This document shows, piece by piece, positions 33,053-47,013 of a stretch of DNA of 64,000 nt. The translations under genes and the position numbers were made by a program. Location of the stretch: the sequence record MK327933.1; one strand, 5' to 3'. The notes beneath the pieces are model-generated. The model had not been told where the DNA came from and ran no database searches. It saw only the letters and a list, made by a program, of their open reading frames with translations. The stretch is from Escherichia phage vB_EcoM_G2285. Each line of letters begins with the position of its first letter. Positions within the stretch are counted from its first letter, which is position 1.

Positions 33053-33313
33053 TTAAGCTTTACCGCCAGAAATAATTCCGAAGTTGTTAAAATCGTATCC
33101 AATATCGTCAACATCTACTTTAGGACTTGCTACAACATAAGCAATTTCACTACGTTTTGCATAGGTGTTGATTTCTTTACCATCGCCACCTAAGAAAGAA
33201 TACCCATTACGCTTTAATGAGCCAAAGTCTTCCGCATCACCAATGAAAGCTTTAACTTTAAATTTGGGGTCTTTGACATCTGCTTCAATGATAAATTCTT
33301 GATACATTTTCAT
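33053..33313 (-). CDS. ipII: Internal protein II-like
   Basis: 86 aa; N-terminal MKMYQEFIIEA capsid-targeting sequence. Confidence 0.65.
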   Translation of the reverse strand: MKMYQEFIIEADVKDPKFKVKAFIGDAEDFGSLKRNGYSFLGGDGKEINTYAKRSEIAYVVASPKVDVDDIGYDFNNFGIISGGKA

Positions 33314-34594: not shown

Positions 34595-35053
34595 TTATAG
34601 GAGGGTAGTGAGCACCTTATATAATGATTTGCCCATTACATATTCCCATTGAGAAGGTTTAATTAAAGCGAATGCATCAAATTCAGGAATCTGTCGTCCG
34701 TCTGGGAATGTATGATAGGAATTACAAACACTGTTTCTGAATTGCTCGTGCTCTACAGGGATGGTATATAAGAACAGATGAATATTCTTATTGTCTGAGT
34801 AATGATGTTCACCTAGGTCTTTCAGGAAGGCAGGGTCATACTGTGTAAACCCAGTTTCTTCTTCGCATTCACGAATAGCGGCTTCAATAGGAGATTCGCC
34901 AGGTTCGACACGGCCTTTAGGAATATCCCACCGATGAGCTAATGCACCTTTAGGACGAGAACCAGTTACACGGCCCATGAATAATTCTTTATCTTCGGTA
35001 AGGAAAATAATACCGGCTGATAGTTCTTTCACTTTATTTTTCTTACTCATCAT
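34595..35053 (-). CDS. nudE: Nudix hydrolase NudE
   Basis: 152 aa; Nudix box GRVEPGESPIEAAIRECEEETGF. Confidence 0.85.
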   Translation of the reverse strand: MMSKKNKVKELSAGIIFLTEDKELFMGRVTGSRPKGALAHRWDIPKGRVEPGESPIEAAIRECEEETGFTQYDPAFLKDLGEHHYSDNKNIHLFLYTIPVEHEQFRNSVCNSYHTFPDGRQIPEFDAFALIKPSQWEYVMGKSLYKVLTTLL

Positions 35054-35294
35054 CTCGGTTCCATGATTTGGCCATTAATTCGGACATAAATTCTTCAATG
35101 CGCGTTTCTTTAGATGGACTTTCACTATCAGATATTTGGACCATATAATCAGAAATAGGTCGGAACATATCCAAGTCGCTTTCTAAATCTTCTTTGATTT
35201 TCTCTTCTGACGTTCCTGTATCATAGGAATACAGATAAGAATCACATGATTCTGATTTAATGTAAATTGCTATACTCATCTCAAATTCCTGCAT
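35043..35294 (-). CDS. Hypothetical small acidic protein
   Basis: 83 aa ORF. Confidence 0.45.
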   Translation of the reverse strand: MQEFEMSIAIYIKSESCDSYLYSYDTGTSEEKIKEDLESDLDMFRPISDYMVQISDSESPSKETRIEEFMSELMAKSWNRDDE

Positions 35295-35512
35295 TCGGTA
35301 ATAAAACGTTCAACTTCATTATTTTTGGCCTTTATCTTGTCTTTACGTTCCTGTAAACTACTTTTAACAAGATTAATAATGATGCCTACAGTACCTCCAC
35401 CAATTATACCGCCAATTATACTTACGATAGTAGATGCTAATAAGATAGCAATAATATCTAGTACGGCAAAGGCACTTACTTTAGTACTAAAAAAACCATA
35501 CCGATGGTACAA
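35276..35512 (-). CDS. Small membrane protein with C-terminal ERFITECR motif
   Basis: 78 aa; TM segment ILLASTIVSIIGGIIGGGTVGIIINL; C-terminus ...NNEVERFITECRNLR. Confidence 0.5.
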   Translation of the reverse strand: MYHRYGFFSTKVSAFAVLDIIAILLASTIVSIIGGIIGGGTVGIIINLVKSSLQERKDKIKAKNNEVERFITECRNLR

Positions 35513-35675
35513 ATATAATCCATCCTGTTATCCATTGGCACTTATTGAAAAACTTTTCAAGCTCAGCTTGAGTTGTTCGTATTACTTCATCGATAGGTTG
35601 ATATCCATTAATGTATCTGTTCACGATAATACCTGCTGGCTGGTCGATTTTAAATTCTTGGCAAATATGTTTCAC
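35487..35675 (-). CDS. Hypothetical small protein
   Basis: 62 aa ORF overlapping the previous one by 26 nt. Confidence 0.3.
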   Translation of the reverse strand: MKHICQEFKIDQPAGIIVNRYINGYQPIDEVIRTTQAELEKFFNKCQWITGWIIFVPSVWFF

Positions 35676-35746
35676 TAAGTATGATGGACATCCTGTCCAA
35701 TCTACTGAATAGTATGAAATACCTTCGTTGCCATCAACTATTCATA

Positions 35747-36052
35747 TTATTTTCCTCGACATTCTTTAATGAAATTTTCTAGATTGGTAGATTCAATAGC
35801 TTTTTTACGAGCTTCTGCGTGTTCTTCTTCGGTCAATTTACGTTTATAATTGACCCAGACATTATGGTCGAAACTAGTCGTGGCATATAATAACAAAGCT
35901 CCGACGAATAATAAAAACGGTGATAAGAATACAAAACCAGGAACACCATCCATATCGTAAGCCTTTTGTAATACTGCAACAGAAAGGGCTGCGTAAAAAA
36001 GTGATGCAAATATTGTTAAAAGACCAATTCGGTTGGTTTCGCCTAATTTCAT
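35747..36052 (-). CDS. Small membrane protein with C-terminal ENFIKECR motif
   Basis: 101 aa; two hydrophobic helices; C-terminus ...STNLENFIKECRGK. Confidence 0.55.
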   Translation of the reverse strand: MKLGETNRIGLLTIFASLFYAALSVAVLQKAYDMDGVPGFVFLSPFLLFVGALLLYATTSFDHNVWVNYKRKLTEEEHAEARKKAIESTNLENFIKECRGK

Positions 36053-36071
36053 AATATTCTCCTCATGTTTA

Positions 36072-36110
36072 ATAGGACTACTATAACATAGTCCTATAAT
36101 TGTGTAAACA
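36072..36110 (-). promoter_or_regulatory. Promoter/stem-loop cassette (PeSL-like)
   Basis: Palindrome ATAGGACTACTATAACATAGTCCTAT (36072-36097) plus minus-strand GTTTAC (36105-36110). Confidence 0.5.
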
Positions 36111-36121
36111 GTTTTGTGAAG

Positions 36122-37078
36122 TTATTTGAAAGGTTTTACCATATGGAAATTTTGTTTGAAACGTTTGACGTAATCATCATGTCCTAAACTTTGGTACATA
36201 CTTACTACTTTGCGGTAGTTTTCCCAGGCATACTCACGAAACCAGCCAGAGGTGATGCTTGTACAGACTTTTTCTAATGCCATCATGAAACTGGCTTCAG
36301 GGTTAATTTTAAAGTCATTAGGAATTTGAGAACGTTCTAATGCTAGTACACATGATTCTTCGTATACACCGGCCAATTTGACCATTTCCGGTAATGATTC
36401 GAACTTCTCGCGTGAGGTCATGACTTCAGAACCGTCTTTCATATAAAATGTATACGCTGGACGGTCTGTTAGTGCAATGGCTTCGTGAATAGTATCATGG
36501 TCATATGTATAGATGTCATCTTTAAAGAACGCACTTTTAGAAGTGTCAAGAACCGGGTGAGCATAGTTCAAGGTTTCTTTCTGGCGTTTCAGCATAATTT
36601 CAGTAAGTTCATCGTTCAGTGTAACACCTTTACCACGAAGATACTGAATATGGTTCATAGTCTTTAAAAAGAATGGATTATTTTTCTTGAAACGATGAGA
36701 CATCTTAATTGCAAGGCACATCTCAGGAGTTGCCCAGTAAAACCCGTTCAAACGGTCTTTAGTCAAATTTTTCTTGGCGTATTTTAAAAGGTCATAAGAA
36801 GACGTGAAATCTTCAGGAGTGAGTTCACCGACTAATTCACGGACATTAGTAATTGCCGGAACAATATATGCTTCAAAATGAGTTTCGCGTCCGTTATGGA
36901 AGCATTTGAAAACTTGGACATCAGGGTTATCTTGGTGAACATATACACCCATCATTTGATTTTTGAATGCATTCCAAGAACATTGGTCCGCAATAAAGTC
37001 CCAATCGCTATTTTTGATAGCGCTAGAATCAATAAGACCGTGATAGTGAAGTGCACGAGAACCAATAACTAACATCAT
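36122..37078 (-). CDS. Hypothetical 318 aa protein with a weak nucleotidyltransferase-like N-terminal motif
   Basis: N-terminus VIGSRALHYHGLIDSSAIKNSDWDF loosely resembles GS...DxD; function unknown. Confidence 0.45.
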   Translation of the reverse strand: MMLVIGSRALHYHGLIDSSAIKNSDWDFIADQCSWNAFKNQMMGVYVHQDNPDVQVFKCFHNGRETHFEAYIVPAITNVRELVGELTPEDFTSSYDLLKYAKKNLTKDRLNGFYWATPEMCLAIKMSHRFKKNNPFFLKTMNHIQYLRGKGVTLNDELTEIMLKRQKETLNYAHPVLDTSKSAFFKDDIYTYDHDTIHEAIALTDRPAYTFYMKDGSEVMTSREKFESLPEMVKLAGVYEESCVLALERSQIPNDFKINPEASFMMALEKVCTSITSGWFREYAWENYRKVVSMYQSLGHDDYVKRFKQNFHMVKPFK

Positions 37079-37106
37079 AATATTTTCCTCGGATTAATTC
37101 ATTAAC

Positions 37107-37358
37107 TTAAATTTCACGACATGCGATATTATATTCATCCCAGAGGTCATCATATGAAGCCTCTACCAAAGGAACGATTGTACCGTTTATGTCTTCATTA
37201 TAAGGGCAAATTGTACAGTGCGCATCTTCGAATCGGATGCCTTTGTGTTCAGATTTTTTATAACGCATATCGAATATCTTTGCAAACTTTTCACGAGTAA
37301 TGGTTTTACTAACCAATTTGGTTCCGATACTTTCGTAATAAATCATTGTGGACTCCAT
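37107..37358 (-). CDS. Hypothetical small protein
   Basis: 83 aa ORF with CxxC pair (CTICPYN). Confidence 0.45.
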   Translation of the reverse strand: MESTMIYYESIGTKLVSKTITREKFAKIFDMRYKKSEHKGIRFEDAHCTICPYNEDINGTIVPLVEASYDDLWDEYNIACREI

Positions 37359-37366
37359 TTAATTTG

Positions 37367-37404
37367 ATAGGACTACTATAACATAGCCCTATCTTGTTGT
37401 AAAC
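37367..37404 (-). promoter_or_regulatory. Promoter/stem-loop cassette (PeSL-like)
   Basis: Palindrome ATAGGACTACTATAACATAGCCCTAT (37367-37392) plus minus-strand GTTTAC (37399-37404). Confidence 0.5.
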
Positions 37405-37408
37405 TGTT

Positions 37409-37606
37409 TTAGCAAGAATAACTAGATGATACCCAGCCTTGAACAGTGATACTATTGTGGGATAATGAGATCGCGTCCTGGAGATTCAGACCTGCGTTAT
37501 CTTCAATCCATAATGTAACTTCTTCGCGTTCTTCTGTTGCAATTTGGAACAGGTTTTCCAGAGCAGCTACTGCCGTACGTACAGCACAATCTAATTCACG
37601 AGACAT
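37409..37606 (-). CDS. Small protein ending in GWVSSSYSC
   Basis: 65 aa ORF; shares the C-terminal WVSSS-x-x-C tail with the adjacent ORF. Confidence 0.45.
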   Translation of the reverse strand: MSRELDCAVRTAVAALENLFQIATEEREEVTLWIEDNAGLNLQDAISLSHNSITVQGWVSSSYSC

Positions 37607-37615
37607 ATTGTTTCC

Positions 37616-37921
37616 TTAGCACAACGCAGAAGACGAAACCCAAGCACCTTCAGTAATAACGTAACCATTACCTTCACGCTTAACATCGCCACCATTATTT
37701 TCAATTTCATCTTTCATCCACTGGTATACGATTTCACCCTTAGGATAATAAGTACGACCGCTACCATAATCACCTACAGAAAATGATACGGCATATTGGT
37801 CTGCGATCTTTGTTGCTTCTTCTTCGATACGTTCAGCTTGATTCAGAAGTTTATAAATTGCATCTGAAGCGGATTTGGCATCATTAAACTCTGGTACTTT
37901 AATTTCAATAATCTTACTCAT
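37616..37921 (-). CDS. Small protein ending in AWVSSSALC
   Basis: 101 aa ORF; shares the C-terminal WVSSS-x-x-C tail with the adjacent ORF. Confidence 0.5.
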   Translation of the reverse strand: MSKIIEIKVPEFNDAKSASDAIYKLLNQAERIEEEATKIADQYAVSFSVGDYGSGRTYYPKGEIVYQWMKDEIENNGGDVKREGNGYVITEGAWVSSSALC

Positions 37922-38277
37922 TTTCTACATTCCTTAATAAAGTTTTCGATTGTTTCATTTTCACGTCTAGCTAAGAGTTCATTATAACTAATCATTTGAG
38001 AAGCGTAAACCTTTTTATTTTTCTTGTTATGGTTTATAAAATCGTAGTAAAAATAGACTACAGTACAAAATGATGCGATGGATGCAAAGGCTTGGGTATA
38101 CCGTAAGTCCTGCCATTGGTCTGTGAATCCACCAGTGTTCCCTATAAATCCTAACACAACGCCATCAATAAGAAATCCAACTAATCCAAAGGCAAATCCC
38201 ATGCCAATACTCATAATAAAAATTAGAATGTTCTCACCAAGAGAAGGCCATATGGTTAAGAGTTGAGGCTTTTGCAT
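37918..38277 (-). CDS. Small membrane protein with C-terminal ENFIKECR motif
   Basis: 119 aa; hydrophobic N-terminal half; C-terminus ...RENETIENFIKECRK. Confidence 0.55.
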   Translation of the reverse strand: MQKPQLLTIWPSLGENILIFIMSIGMGFAFGLVGFLIDGVVLGFIGNTGGFTDQWQDLRYTQAFASIASFCTVVYFYYDFINHNKKNKKVYASQMISYNELLARRENETIENFIKECRK

Positions 38278-38651
38278 CTTATTTCCTTAACGAATTCCAT
38301 AGCTTCTTCATATTCATACTTTTTAACAGCCTCGTCATATTGAGCTCTTGCTTTTGCACATTGAATTTTCCATTCGCGTACTCGAGCTCTATAATGACGT
38401 CCTTGGTACCAATATCCCACCCAGTTAATAGGCATTAATAAAAATGGCACAATAAACGACCCGGCTATAATAAGTAAAAACACTGCATCAGACGATATAA
38501 CTTCACTAGAATCTAAAACAGCTCCTATAATCATAAAGATTAAAAATGCTAAAGCTAAAATAGGGCCAAATAGTACTTCATTTGGGATTAATTTACGCTT
38601 GTATTCATACGCCCAGGGCTTAATTGGCATGTACAGGGTTGGCTTTGACAT
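38256..38651 (-). CDS. Small membrane protein with degenerate C-terminal EFVKEIRC motif
   Basis: ORF 38256-38681, start probably MSKPTLY at 38651; two TM helices; C-terminus ...EEAMEFVKEIRCKSLNS. Confidence 0.5.
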   Translation of the reverse strand: MSKPTLYMPIKPWAYEYKRKLIPNEVLFGPILALAFLIFMIIGAVLDSSEVISSDAVFLLIIAGSFIVPFLLMPINWVGYWYQGRHYRARVREWKIQCAKARAQYDEAVKKYEYEEAMEFVKEIRCKSLNS

Positions 38652-39243
38652 ATTCTCTACATTCCATAATAAATTGCTCAAGGATTAAATTGTTAGTGAA
38701 ATTAGGACTAACAACCATGGTTTCATAAAGCGCATCAATAGCACTTAAAGCATCAACTCTTTTAAGCAAAGGCTTGCCTTCATACATAGTTTCAGAATCG
38801 ATGATTAACGTAAAGTAATATTTTTTATTATCGACTAGAACTTCTGTATCGATATAAAACATATTAGACCTCAGAAGCTTATCTCTAAAACCATAATAAT
38901 CTTCAGAGCGTTCGCTGATATATTCCCATTCAGTGTTTAAACAACAAACAGACCATGTAGGAGCAACGAAATCAGTGAATCTAATATCATGGTCTGCAAC
39001 TAGTTTAGCAATAGCTCCGATATCATGAATCATAATACCTGGGGCTAATAAAGATTTTCTGCTATGGCCGGCCGTTTTCTCGGTGGTCTCATAAGAAGAC
39101 GACCAGTACCATTTACGTCCAGTTGCAACATATCGTAATGAATCAACTAAAGACGTAGGTGGATTTACCTTATCTCGGAACTCTTCGAACATTGAGTCAA
39201 TATCATTATTTTGGTTTCGCATGTTAACTCCTTTATTATCCAA
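38620..39243 (-). CDS. Hypothetical protein with C-terminal EQFIMECRE motif
   Basis: 207 aa ORF; C-terminal ...LILEQFIMECREYVKANPVHAN. Confidence 0.5.
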   Translation of the reverse strand: MDNKGVNMRNQNNDIDSMFEEFRDKVNPPTSLVDSLRYVATGRKWYWSSSYETTEKTAGHSRKSLLAPGIMIHDIGAIAKLVADHDIRFTDFVAPTWSVCCLNTEWEYISERSEDYYGFRDKLLRSNMFYIDTEVLVDNKKYYFTLIIDSETMYEGKPLLKRVDALSAIDALYETMVVSPNFTNNLILEQFIMECREYVKANPVHAN

Positions 39244-39271
39244 AAGGAGGACCGGAGTCCTCCGTATTATT

Positions 39272-39865
39272 TTATTTCAAAGAGTTAATATATTCTTGTA
39301 CATCAGCAGAAGTGGTTTCGACACCAGCTGGAGTGCCATTGAACGTTTCAACACGAGTCAGAGTGTCTTCGATATCAACCTTAGTCAGTGCAGCGATTTC
39401 AATTACATCATCGGCCGTAGAGATACCAAGGGCATTGGCTGCTCGAGTTTCACGAATGTATTCGAGTTTGATTGCTAGATTCTGACGAGCATCATCAAGT
39501 TCAACCACCTTACGAGCAATTTCAATTCGCATAGCGGCATACCCGTCAGCTTTTGTATTAAGTTGTTCGGCAGTTCGACGATACAGAAGACCAAGCTTAG
39601 CATGCATGGTAACATCTTGTCCTTCAGCCAAGAGCTTACGAATTTCACGTTCCTTAGAAGCGGCTTGCTTGTTCTTTTCATTAACAAGTTCGCGAATACG
39701 TTTTTCTTCATTAATAGATTTAACAGAAGCCGTTTTTAGTTCTTTGATTTGGGTAATCAACTTATCTGCAGCTGCGTTATACTGTTCTTCGACAGTCAGA
39801 TTTTTAGCCATAGCAGTACCCAGTTTAGTGCGGATGAATTCGACAAGTTTCTTCAGTGTGTTCAT
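39272..39865 (-). CDS. Coiled-coil protein, possibly PspA/IM30-like
   Basis: ORF 39272-39880, likely start MNTLKKL at 39865; about 200 aa of predicted continuous alpha-helical coiled coil; resemblance to PspA is by composition and length only. Confidence 0.4.
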
Positions 39866-46437: not shown

Positions 46438-47013
46438 TTGTTATTTACATTCTTCGACCCAATAGGATATAGTGCTAAAACAGTTAATAAGAACGCACCT
46501 ACTATTCCTATGACAGACATATTTCGTAACTATAAAGAATACTTTAAGCGTGTTGCTGCCAATTATAGATTACGTTCTTATTATATTAAAGGCTCTCCGC
46601 GTCCTGAAGAACTAGCGAATATCATTTATGGCAACCCTCAATTATACTGGGTCCTTTTGATGTGTAATGACAACTATGATCCGTATTATGGTTGGATTAC
46701 ATCTCAGGAAGCAGCGTATCAAGCTTCTATTCAGAAATATGCTAATGCTGGCGGAGACCAAGTTCTTTATCATATTAATGAAAATCGTGAGAAATTTTAC
46801 AATTTAGTTTCATATCCGGACGAGCCTTTAGTGTGGTACGATAAAGGTGATGAAGCTCGTAAGTATCCGCAATATAAAGGACCTTTAGCTGCAGTAGATA
46901 CTTATGAAGCGGCAGTATTAGATAATGAAAAACTTCGTAAAATAAAAATTGTTGCAAAAGAAGATATAAACTCGTTTATCACAGATTTGATTCGTGAGAT
47001 GGAGATTGCATAA
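46438..47013 (+). CDS. 53: Baseplate wedge protein gp53
   Basis: 191 aa; MLFTFFDPIGYSAKTVNKNAPTIPMTDIFRNYKEYFKR... Confidence 0.9.
   Translation: MLFTFFDPIGYSAKTVNKNAPTIPMTDIFRNYKEYFKRVAANYRLRSYYIKGSPRPEELANIIYGNPQLYWVLLMCNDNYDPYYGWITSQEAAYQASIQKYANAGGDQVLYHINENREKFYNLVSYPDEPLVWYDKGDEARKYPQYKGPLAAVDTYEAAVLDNEKLRKIKIVAKEDINSFITDLIREMEIA

Follow-up and report, generated by a model that had tools for sequence, protein, structure and literature searches.

A shared FIKxCR-type C-terminal tail on membrane and soluble early proteins of T4-type phages: a possible docking helix

Introduction

Why should several small proteins encoded side by side in the early region of a T4-type phage end in the same short peptide? 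The question is raised by a 64,000-nucleotide stretch of Escherichia phage vB_EcoM_G2285 (MK327933.1), the whole of which is referred to here as the window. An initial annotation, made from the sequence alone, had noted five open reading frames (ORFs) within 4 kb that end in an ENFIKECR-type motif, and had proposed that they form a family of small membrane proteins with a common partner or common processing. We report that the five ORFs correspond to e.2, RB69ORF133c (133c below), e.3, e.4 and e.5, that the motif recurs in every T4-type lineage sampled and is carried by membrane as well as soluble proteins, and that, as judged from sequence comparison, it is kept by purifying selection on the protein. 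We then weigh the possibility that the tail is a portable docking helix for one shared partner, which may be the product of the neighbouring gene e.6.

Results

By its sequence, the window is that of an RB69-like Mosigvirus, a T4-type phage; positions 35000-39500 have 96-97% DNA identity with RB69 and many relatives. RB69 and T4 annotation together with PHROG matches identify the five ORFs, all on the minus strand, as the 3′ half of e.2, 133c, e.3, e.4 and e.5. The cluster lies between e.6 and nudE/e (lysozyme), and its gene order is that of RB69 and T4. All five motif copies were found on the minus strand where they had first been placed, and the earlier account needs correction on three points: the nature of the first ORF, the end of e.5 and the copy in e.4.

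The soluble e.5 protein (200 amino acids; 38620-39222, minus strand; phrog_2607, E=5e-95) ends in LILEQFIMECREYVKANPVHAN, so that its motif, EQFIMECR (38656-38679), sits 11 residues before the stop and not at the C-terminal end proper. Its start is likely the ATG at 39222, as annotated in RB69 and T4, rather than the TTG at 39243. The last 11 codons of e.5 overlap the start of e.4 (131 amino acids, two transmembrane (TM) segments; 38256-38651, minus strand; phrog_2604, E=1e-61), which ends in EEAMEFVKEIRCKSLNS and has a weaker, variant copy, (E)FVKEIR(C) at 38277-38294, with Ile in place of Cys and a Cys two residues later. The last seven codons of e.4 overlap in turn the start of e.3, a membrane protein of 119 amino acids (37918-38277, minus strand; phrog_2330, E=1e-49) with the tail ENETIENFIKECRK, the motif ENFIKECR at 37924-37947 and a stop codon that overlaps the next start (ATGA). 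The 133c homologue (101 amino acids, two TM segments; 35747-36052, minus strand) ends in STNLENFIKECRGK, again with ENFIKECR (35756-35779); it matches phrog_9798 (E=8e-67) and, weakly, the PHROGs of e.2 and e.3.

Alignment to RB69 e.2 identifies the first ORF (35276-35512, minus strand, TTG start) not as a gene of its own but as the 3′ half of a disrupted e.2. It encodes a hydrophobic segment and the tail NNEVERFITECRNLR (motif ERFITECR, 35288-35311), and matches positions 93-166 of the 166 in phrog_2203 (E=6e-20). The middle part of the gene, a soluble N-terminal domain without its native start, lies at 35487-35675 on the minus strand (phrog_2203 positions 33-97, E=3e-13). Relative to RB69, a 711-bp deletion has removed RB69ORF132c together with e.2 codons 1-13, and an extra T (+1) in a T-run splits the e.2 frame; what remains of the ORF132c start (ATG AAT AGT TGA) comes after 133c. 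The same 78-amino-acid e.2 fragment, with an ATG start, is present in other isolates (P0051). Decay of e.2 has taken two routes: N-terminal deletion plus frameshift here (35276-35745), and in-frame stops in T4 (L002, 3485-3961), where the annotated ORF terminates at those stops and the same frame downstream still encodes NLNNFITECRKLK, overlapping the nudE start, with the tail FITECRKLK readable up to its stop codon.

The motif is far more frequent than chance would allow. Order-2 Markov simulations (200 runs) predict a mean of 0.005 matches to E.F[IV].ECR for the six-frame translation of the window, which contains four; for F[IV].ECR the prediction is 0.065 and the count again four. Beyond the cluster, a relaxed pattern gave off-frame hits only, with no in-gene match in the rest of the window or in a further 61 kb of sequence from phage VR7; a candidate sixth copy at 46444-46461 (WVEECK and a stop) is off-frame within another gene and was rejected. 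A 39-position profile of the five tails, run against 1.84 billion representative proteins, recovered only Mosigvirus family members and two repetitive spurious proteins, and the motif is thus not a common low-complexity ending; a profile of this length is too short to reach other genera. Word-indexed homology searches returned close relatives or fragments only.

Other genera were covered by reading the e.6-to-e region in ten further lineages (genus in brackets where available): T4; VR7 (Gaprivervirus); C6 and vB_EcoM_005 (Dhakavirus); Enterobacter phage MY742; Klebsiella phage JD18 (Jiaodavirus); Pectobacterium phage PM2 (Mosugukvirus); Erwinia phage IT22 (Roskildevirus); Yersinia phage fHe-Yen9-01 (Tegunavirus); Aeromonas phage Aes012 (Tulanevirus); and Citrobacter phage Margaery (Pseudotevenvirus). 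All of them encode proteins with the motif near the C-terminus, from one to about eight per genome; JD18 has five copies and PM2 at least seven, and the region read contains a single motif gene in Aes012 and in Margaery. The consensus of 27 aligned instances is [L/I/F]-[D/E]-x-F-[I/V]-K-x-C-R-[K/R]-K, with Phe in 25/27, Ile or Val in all 27, Cys in 19/27 and Arg in 25/27. The only residues that replace the Cys are Ile, Val, Met, Ala and Ser, and what the position requires is therefore probably small size and hydrophobicity, not a reactive thiol. The hydrophobic positions (-3, 0, +1 and +4) fit a single helix face, and the hydrophobic moment is 0.4-0.8. Assessed as a possible membrane-targeting helix, the tails have hydrophobic moments of 0.2-0.8, 0-13 residues after the motif and a net charge of -2 to +4 over the last 20 residues; the Margaery motif stands 30 residues from its stop codon.

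Within orthologue alignments the motif is the best-conserved part. T4 and window proteins are 35% (e.3), 53% (e.4) and 47% (e.5) identical, and the T4 tails nevertheless keep FVIDCR, FVKESRC and FVKECR, respectively, in the endings FVIDCRKIK (e.3) and FVKESRCKSQS (e.4), each followed directly by the stop, and in the longer FVKECREYVKA... of e.5. When e.3 is aligned from five phages, Met1 and the motif Phe are the only invariant columns; F, I, C and R are among the columns that do not vary in e.2 orthologues, as are F184, C188, R189 and K193 in e.5-type proteins from three lineages.

The codon data point in the same direction. It had been noted that the copies in the window are encoded by different codons; this holds, and the variation there is modest (TTT/TTC, AAA/AAG, TGT/TGC and AGG/CGA/AGA), with the stronger evidence coming from orthologues. 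Across copies and orthologues, Arg is encoded by AGA, AGG, CGA, CGT or CGC, Cys by TGT or TGC, and Phe by TTT or TTC. Between this phage and RB69, the ratio of non-synonymous to synonymous substitution rates (dN/dS) is 0.04-0.19 for all five genes, and 0.04 for the 3′ half of e.2. Evidence that such ORFs are translated comes from T4, for which a published proteome time-course (PMC9697503, supplementary files 4 and 6) sorts the orthologues into temporal classes of RNA and of protein. All five are early at the RNA level; the protein is classed as early for e.4 and e.5, as middle for e.2 and e.6 and as late for e.3. Given the synonymous variation, the dN/dS values and the T4 protein classes, selection acts on the protein, and these comparisons show it to be purifying selection that keeps the tail.

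Two types of protein carry the motif. One consists of proteins of 90-130 amino acids with two hydrophobic segments and a basic tail that is predicted to be cytoplasmic; the other consists of soluble proteins of 55-301 amino acids, namely e.5 and its positional equivalents. By simple hydropathy, TM segments are found in four of the five window proteins, as was first noted: two each in 133c (residues 9-27 and 37-55) and e.4 (27-45 and 57-75), at least one in e.3, and an overlapping hydrophobic stretch in e.2. In e.5, no 19-residue segment comes up to the TM hydropathy threshold. The label of small membrane proteins is therefore right for e.2, 133c, e.3 and e.4, and too narrow for the family as a whole. 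In the membrane carriers the tail is basic and follows the last TM segment, and a cytoplasmic C-terminus, also part of the earlier description, is accordingly what hydropathy and the positive-inside rule predict.

Profile-profile comparison with hhalign detects homology confined to the tail between e.3 and e.4 (P=85%) and between e.3 and e.2 (P=95%), and between e.3 and 133c (P=96%) over 70 columns, comprising the second membrane segment and the tail. These alignments show the membrane members to be tandem paralogues in which both ends have been kept (N-terminal M-x-K-P... and the C-terminal tail) and the membrane cores have diverged. Many of the 90-130-amino-acid membrane carriers begin with an M-x-K-P-S-K-P-like sequence. 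The e.3/e.4-type paralogues share M-S/Q-K-P-x-L (38634-38651 and 38260-38277 in the window), with Y-L-P-S-K-P in T4, PM2 and JD18, and the N-terminal motif is also found in membrane paralogues at another phage locus (L011, 5139-6185). Because the genes overlap, the codons of this motif double as a C-terminal extension of the preceding gene. The tail also occurs on soluble domains that look unrelated, and so behaves as a portable module.

Two further observations concern e.3 and e.4. Relative to RB69, e.4 has a synonymous divergence (dS) of 0.43 and 15 non-synonymous changes, against a dS of 0.03-0.07 in its neighbours e.3 and e.5, which suggests a recombinational patch. In Escherichia phage OLB35, a 60-amino-acid protein (P0040) is an in-frame chimera of e.3 segments and the e.4 tail, with the junction ...ENETIE|AVKKYEYEEAMEFVKEIRCKSLN; it represents either a natural deletion fusing the paralogues or an assembly artefact.

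The gene directly upstream of e.5 is e.6 (197 amino acids; 39272-39865, minus strand), which is not itself a member of the motif family and was found in 1109 phage records. In all ten e.6-bearing lineages sampled, the very next gene encodes a soluble protein in the e.5 position that has the motif. This pairing persists in Aeromonas and Pseudotevenvirus phages, in which e.6 and e.5 are located among nrd genes and not near the lysozyme gene e. A long helical hairpin is predicted for the e.6 protein, with Vipp1/IM30 and PspA as its best fold matches in the PDB, at a subthreshold signal. The Margaery orthologue aligns colinearly with PF04012 through residues 2-144 at 20.4 bits (E=4e-4; cut-off 33.9). 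In this phage e.6 gives no match to PF04012 in Pfam and does not reach the gathering score, and hhalign against an approximate E. coli PspA sequence was negative. On these models, e.6 is a candidate, probably but not certainly a PspA/IM30-like protein, and it could be a PspA/ESCRT-III-like protein that the phage encodes. A literature search on phage PspA, ESCRT-III and Vipp1 found no report of e.6 as PspA-like, which is not proof of absence.

Database searches added little on function. For the five proteins, Pfam and NCBIfam gave no informative family, and no family match in Pfam, NCBIfam or PHROGs spoke for the roles first suggested for them (superinfection exclusion, lysis timing, defence or counter-defence), the PADLOC defence library being outside the search. 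Newer Pfam entries (PF26896, PF26873 and PF26876) exist as precomputed labels for T4-type e genes and RB69ORF133c. A fold search with e.5 among viral models returned uncharacterised T4-type proteins only, and sequence searches of the PDB with e.5 and e.6 gave no match.

Further features of the locus can be noted. Between e.6 and e.5, a consensus scan places a terminator-like element (39246-39263, minus strand) made up of a GC-rich hairpin and a T-run after it, and a consensus match suggests an early promoter 5′ of 133c (TTTACA-17-TATAGT with an upstream TG; 36080-36108, minus strand). A promoter-like site of this kind is carried by an intergenic repeat of about 48 bp (36060-36120 and 37363-37410; copies 86-88% identical, and present in RB69 too) that stands upstream of 133c and of the ORF135c homologue, and that is similar to the mobile promoter cassettes known from T4-type phages.

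A second family defined by its C-terminus, consisting of small soluble proteins that end in G-W-V-S-S-S-x-x-C and a stop, has its genes interspersed among those with the FIKxCR motif. The window has two such genes on the minus strand (37409-37606 and 37616-37921), with the endings ...QGWVSSSYSC and ...GAWVSSSALC, and further ones were located at other phage loci (L003, 5300-6559; L006, 3966-5589; L011, 4106-5149; L017, 4553-5576). With two exceptions, the copies read have Cys as their final residue or the one before it. Tandem arrays of up to five copies are found in other T4-type phages and the T4 e region has none; the proteins belong to PHROGs 4882 and 899 and have no Pfam family. A 318-amino-acid RB69ORF134c protein (36122-37078, minus strand; DUF7277, E=1e-27; DUF7275, E=7e-79) is conserved throughout the T4-type regions read. 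At 37601-37621, RB69ORF137c (about 261 bp) is missing and the flanking BLAST pieces have 21 bp in common, the pattern that a deletion between short direct repeats would leave, and RB69ORF138c and 139c form a single 101-amino-acid ORF in this phage.

Discussion

The most economical reading of a common tail on different proteins is that they have a partner in common, as the initial annotation had suggested. We propose that the motif would be the core of a C-terminal amphipathic helix of 20-30 residues on early accessory proteins of T4-type phages. The products of e.2, 133c, e.3 and e.4 would be helical hairpins in the inner membrane with the tail in the cytoplasm, and e.5 would be soluble; the helix would serve, on the cytoplasmic side of the inner membrane, as a docking peptide that brings its carriers to one partner. 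More tentatively, and by analogy with PspC and PspA, that partner could be e.6, in which case the tailed proteins would recruit or regulate a membrane-stabilising e.6 polymer during infection. To this reading, in which the tail is a portable helix, located in the cytoplasm, that docks on a single common partner and e.6 may be that partner, we would assign a probability of roughly 0.45.

The analogy derives from the Psp system, in which PspC's cytoplasmic C-terminal domain binds PspA (PMC5596341). The phage set resembles the PspA-PspB-PspC system in that e.6, a PspA/IM30-like hairpin by fold search and by one subthreshold Pfam match, is encoded beside small, predicted inner-membrane proteins in which the part conserved is a C-terminal segment, predicted to be cytoplasmic. 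It differs in that e.2, e.3 and e.4 have no sequence relation to PspB or PspC and e.6 is below the Pfam threshold, and also in including soluble tail carriers and no PspF-type regulator. The clamp-binding tails of T4 replication and transcription proteins and the MIM motifs of ESCRT-III subunits are likewise short terminal peptides on different bodies, an arrangement that suggests a single binding site, although their sequences differ from that of the phage motif. Taken a step further, T4-type phages might encode a Psp/ESCRT-III-like membrane-maintenance module of their own, made up of e.6 and variable tail-bearing adaptors (e.2, e.3, e.4, 133c and e.5); we consider this larger proposal doubtful, if worth stating. 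A module of this kind could serve to hold the membrane and the proton-motive force during infection or lysis inhibition.

Several observations weigh against the docking proposal and its e.6 version. VR7 has e.2, e.3 and a truncated e.4, all with the motif, and neither e.6 nor e.5 is found in 120 of its 169 kb; the motif is thus not strictly dependent on e.6, unless the deletion is recent. The loss of e.6 and e.5 in VR7 looks like a single replacement event, and it may be recent. In a packed early region, moreover, adjacency of genes is weak evidence of interaction. Neither e.3 nor e.4 (nor e.2) has a PspB or PspC match at E<=1 in Pfam, or any in NCBIfam. Finally, the AlphaFold2 model of e.5 does place the motif within a helix (residues 173-194), as the proposal would have it, but has low confidence, with a predicted local distance difference test score (pLDDT) of 54.

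One alternative is that the tail needs no protein partner, and is a membrane-surface amphipathic helix of the MinD/FtsA type that tethers the soluble e.5-type proteins to the inner membrane and, in the integral members, lies flat against it. Like those helices, the phage tail is short, is predicted to be amphipathic, stands at or close to the C-terminus and has an aromatic residue flanked by Lys/Arg, and soluble carriers are encoded beside the membrane proteins. The phi-x-x-F-I-[K/R] register recurs at the N-terminus of e.6, which corresponds in position to the membrane-binding helix of PspA and Vipp1. Against this, the hydrophobic face is narrow (four residues), acidic residues occur in and before the motif, and in about half of the copies the net charge of the last 20 residues is at most +1. 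A near-invariant Phe and Cys-Arg pair is also more than lipid binding usually demands, and most carriers are already integral membrane proteins. We regard membrane tethering as an unlikely explanation of the tail.

About equally improbable, in our view, is that the tails bind one another, so that the members, e.5 included, form one hetero-oligomeric membrane complex through a bundle of C-terminal helices. The heptad-like spacing of hydrophobic residues would fit such a bundle, the genes are co-transcribed and translationally coupled with several copies per genome (3 to 8), and copy number varies freely among phages, as it would for interchangeable subunits. In Aes012 and Margaery, however, the single motif gene of the region would require a partner that is not a paralogue, or homo-oligomerisation.

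Nor do we think it likely that the tail is directed at a host protein, for example to recruit or inhibit an inner-membrane protease such as FtsH, or that it acts as a degron that sets the lifetime of early proteins, a reading that we place on a level with the preceding two. C-terminal peptides are classical recognition tags, the carriers are made early, and VR7 retains the motif without e.6 and e.5. On the other hand, the motif resembles no known degron or host-binding motif among those tested, the family searches were uninformative, and the tight linkage to e.6 would be left without explanation.

A different kind of explanation is that the peptide is a by-product of nucleotide constraint, being a duplicated translation-initiation region (Shine-Dalgarno (SD) sequence, spacer and overlap) for the next coupled gene. 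There is a real constraint of this type. In all five cases the next gene starts 17-28 nt past the Phe codon, with an SD-like sequence in or just past the motif: in e.3 and e.4 the Lys-Glu codons contain AAGGA, and in e.2 and 133c the Arg codon and the one after it contain AGGA or GAGGA. In e.5, the 24 nt for ECREYVKA overlap the e.4 start and are the most conserved 24 nt of the gene, with 100% identity between this phage and T4; and MY742 e.2, in which Glu has become Gly (GGA), retains AAAGGA. The SD constraint probably accounts for part of the Lys-Glu preference, but not for the Phe, Ile, Cys and Arg. It cannot be the main cause of the motif, because the register of the SD sequence relative to the motif differs among copies, the F, I/V, C and R lie outside it, and synonymous positions vary, with both CGN and AGR codons in use for Arg and both TGT and TGC for Cys. 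For example, T4 e.3 (TTT GTG ATT GAT TGC AGG) and window e.3 (TTT ATT AAG GAA TGT AGA) share the peptide pattern and little of the DNA; identical residues use the same codon at 27/34 positions in the tails, only slightly above the gene-wide 126/203; and the Margaery motif stands 30 residues ahead of its stop codon. A translation-initiation repeat in fixed register was rejected on the variable Phe-to-ATG distance, the placement of the SD sequence in different codons and the synonymous variation, and as the origin of the peptide we hold nucleotide constraint to be very improbable.

Weakest of all, and hardly credible, is that the motif is a capsid-targeting or gp21 prohead-protease site akin to MKTYQEFIAE, the N-terminal leader of T4 internal proteins, or else a stretch of DNA homology serving as a recombination linker: an ORF at 33053-33313 does start MKMYQEFIIE, E-F-I-x-E does resemble the leader, and deletions and insertions do adjoin motif copies in this mosaic region, but other genera have G, N, Q, S, D or Y where the (L/I)-x-E site requires its Glu (Glu at +3 in only 12/27), the motif is C-terminal and not N-terminal, and the copies differ at 5/24 nt even within one genome, with the endpoints of the ORF132c deletion outside them.

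The genes in question are those already known as T4 e.2-e.5 and RB69ORF133c, given full-length PHROG matches (except for e.2, in two fragments), 96% DNA identity to RB69 and 35-53% protein identity to T4. They are annotated as hypothetical, and databases list them as five separate families; no annotation that we found mentions a shared tail, soluble carriers or a link to e.6. These features, and the breadth of the tail across Straboviridae, appear to be undescribed: a literature search by the T4 e.x gene names, though not by the motif, found no functional study.

Finally, e.2-e.6 are conserved genes of T4 that have remained without an assigned function after decades of work. A single short peptide, found on as many as eight proteins of one genome and kept by selection across distant T4-type phages, would bring several hypothetical proteins that had seemed unrelated together as one module. 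If the proposed link to a viral PspA-like protein is true, lytic phages would carry membrane-repair machinery of their own, a point relevant both to the way in which an infected cell remains energised up to lysis and to lysis inhibition.

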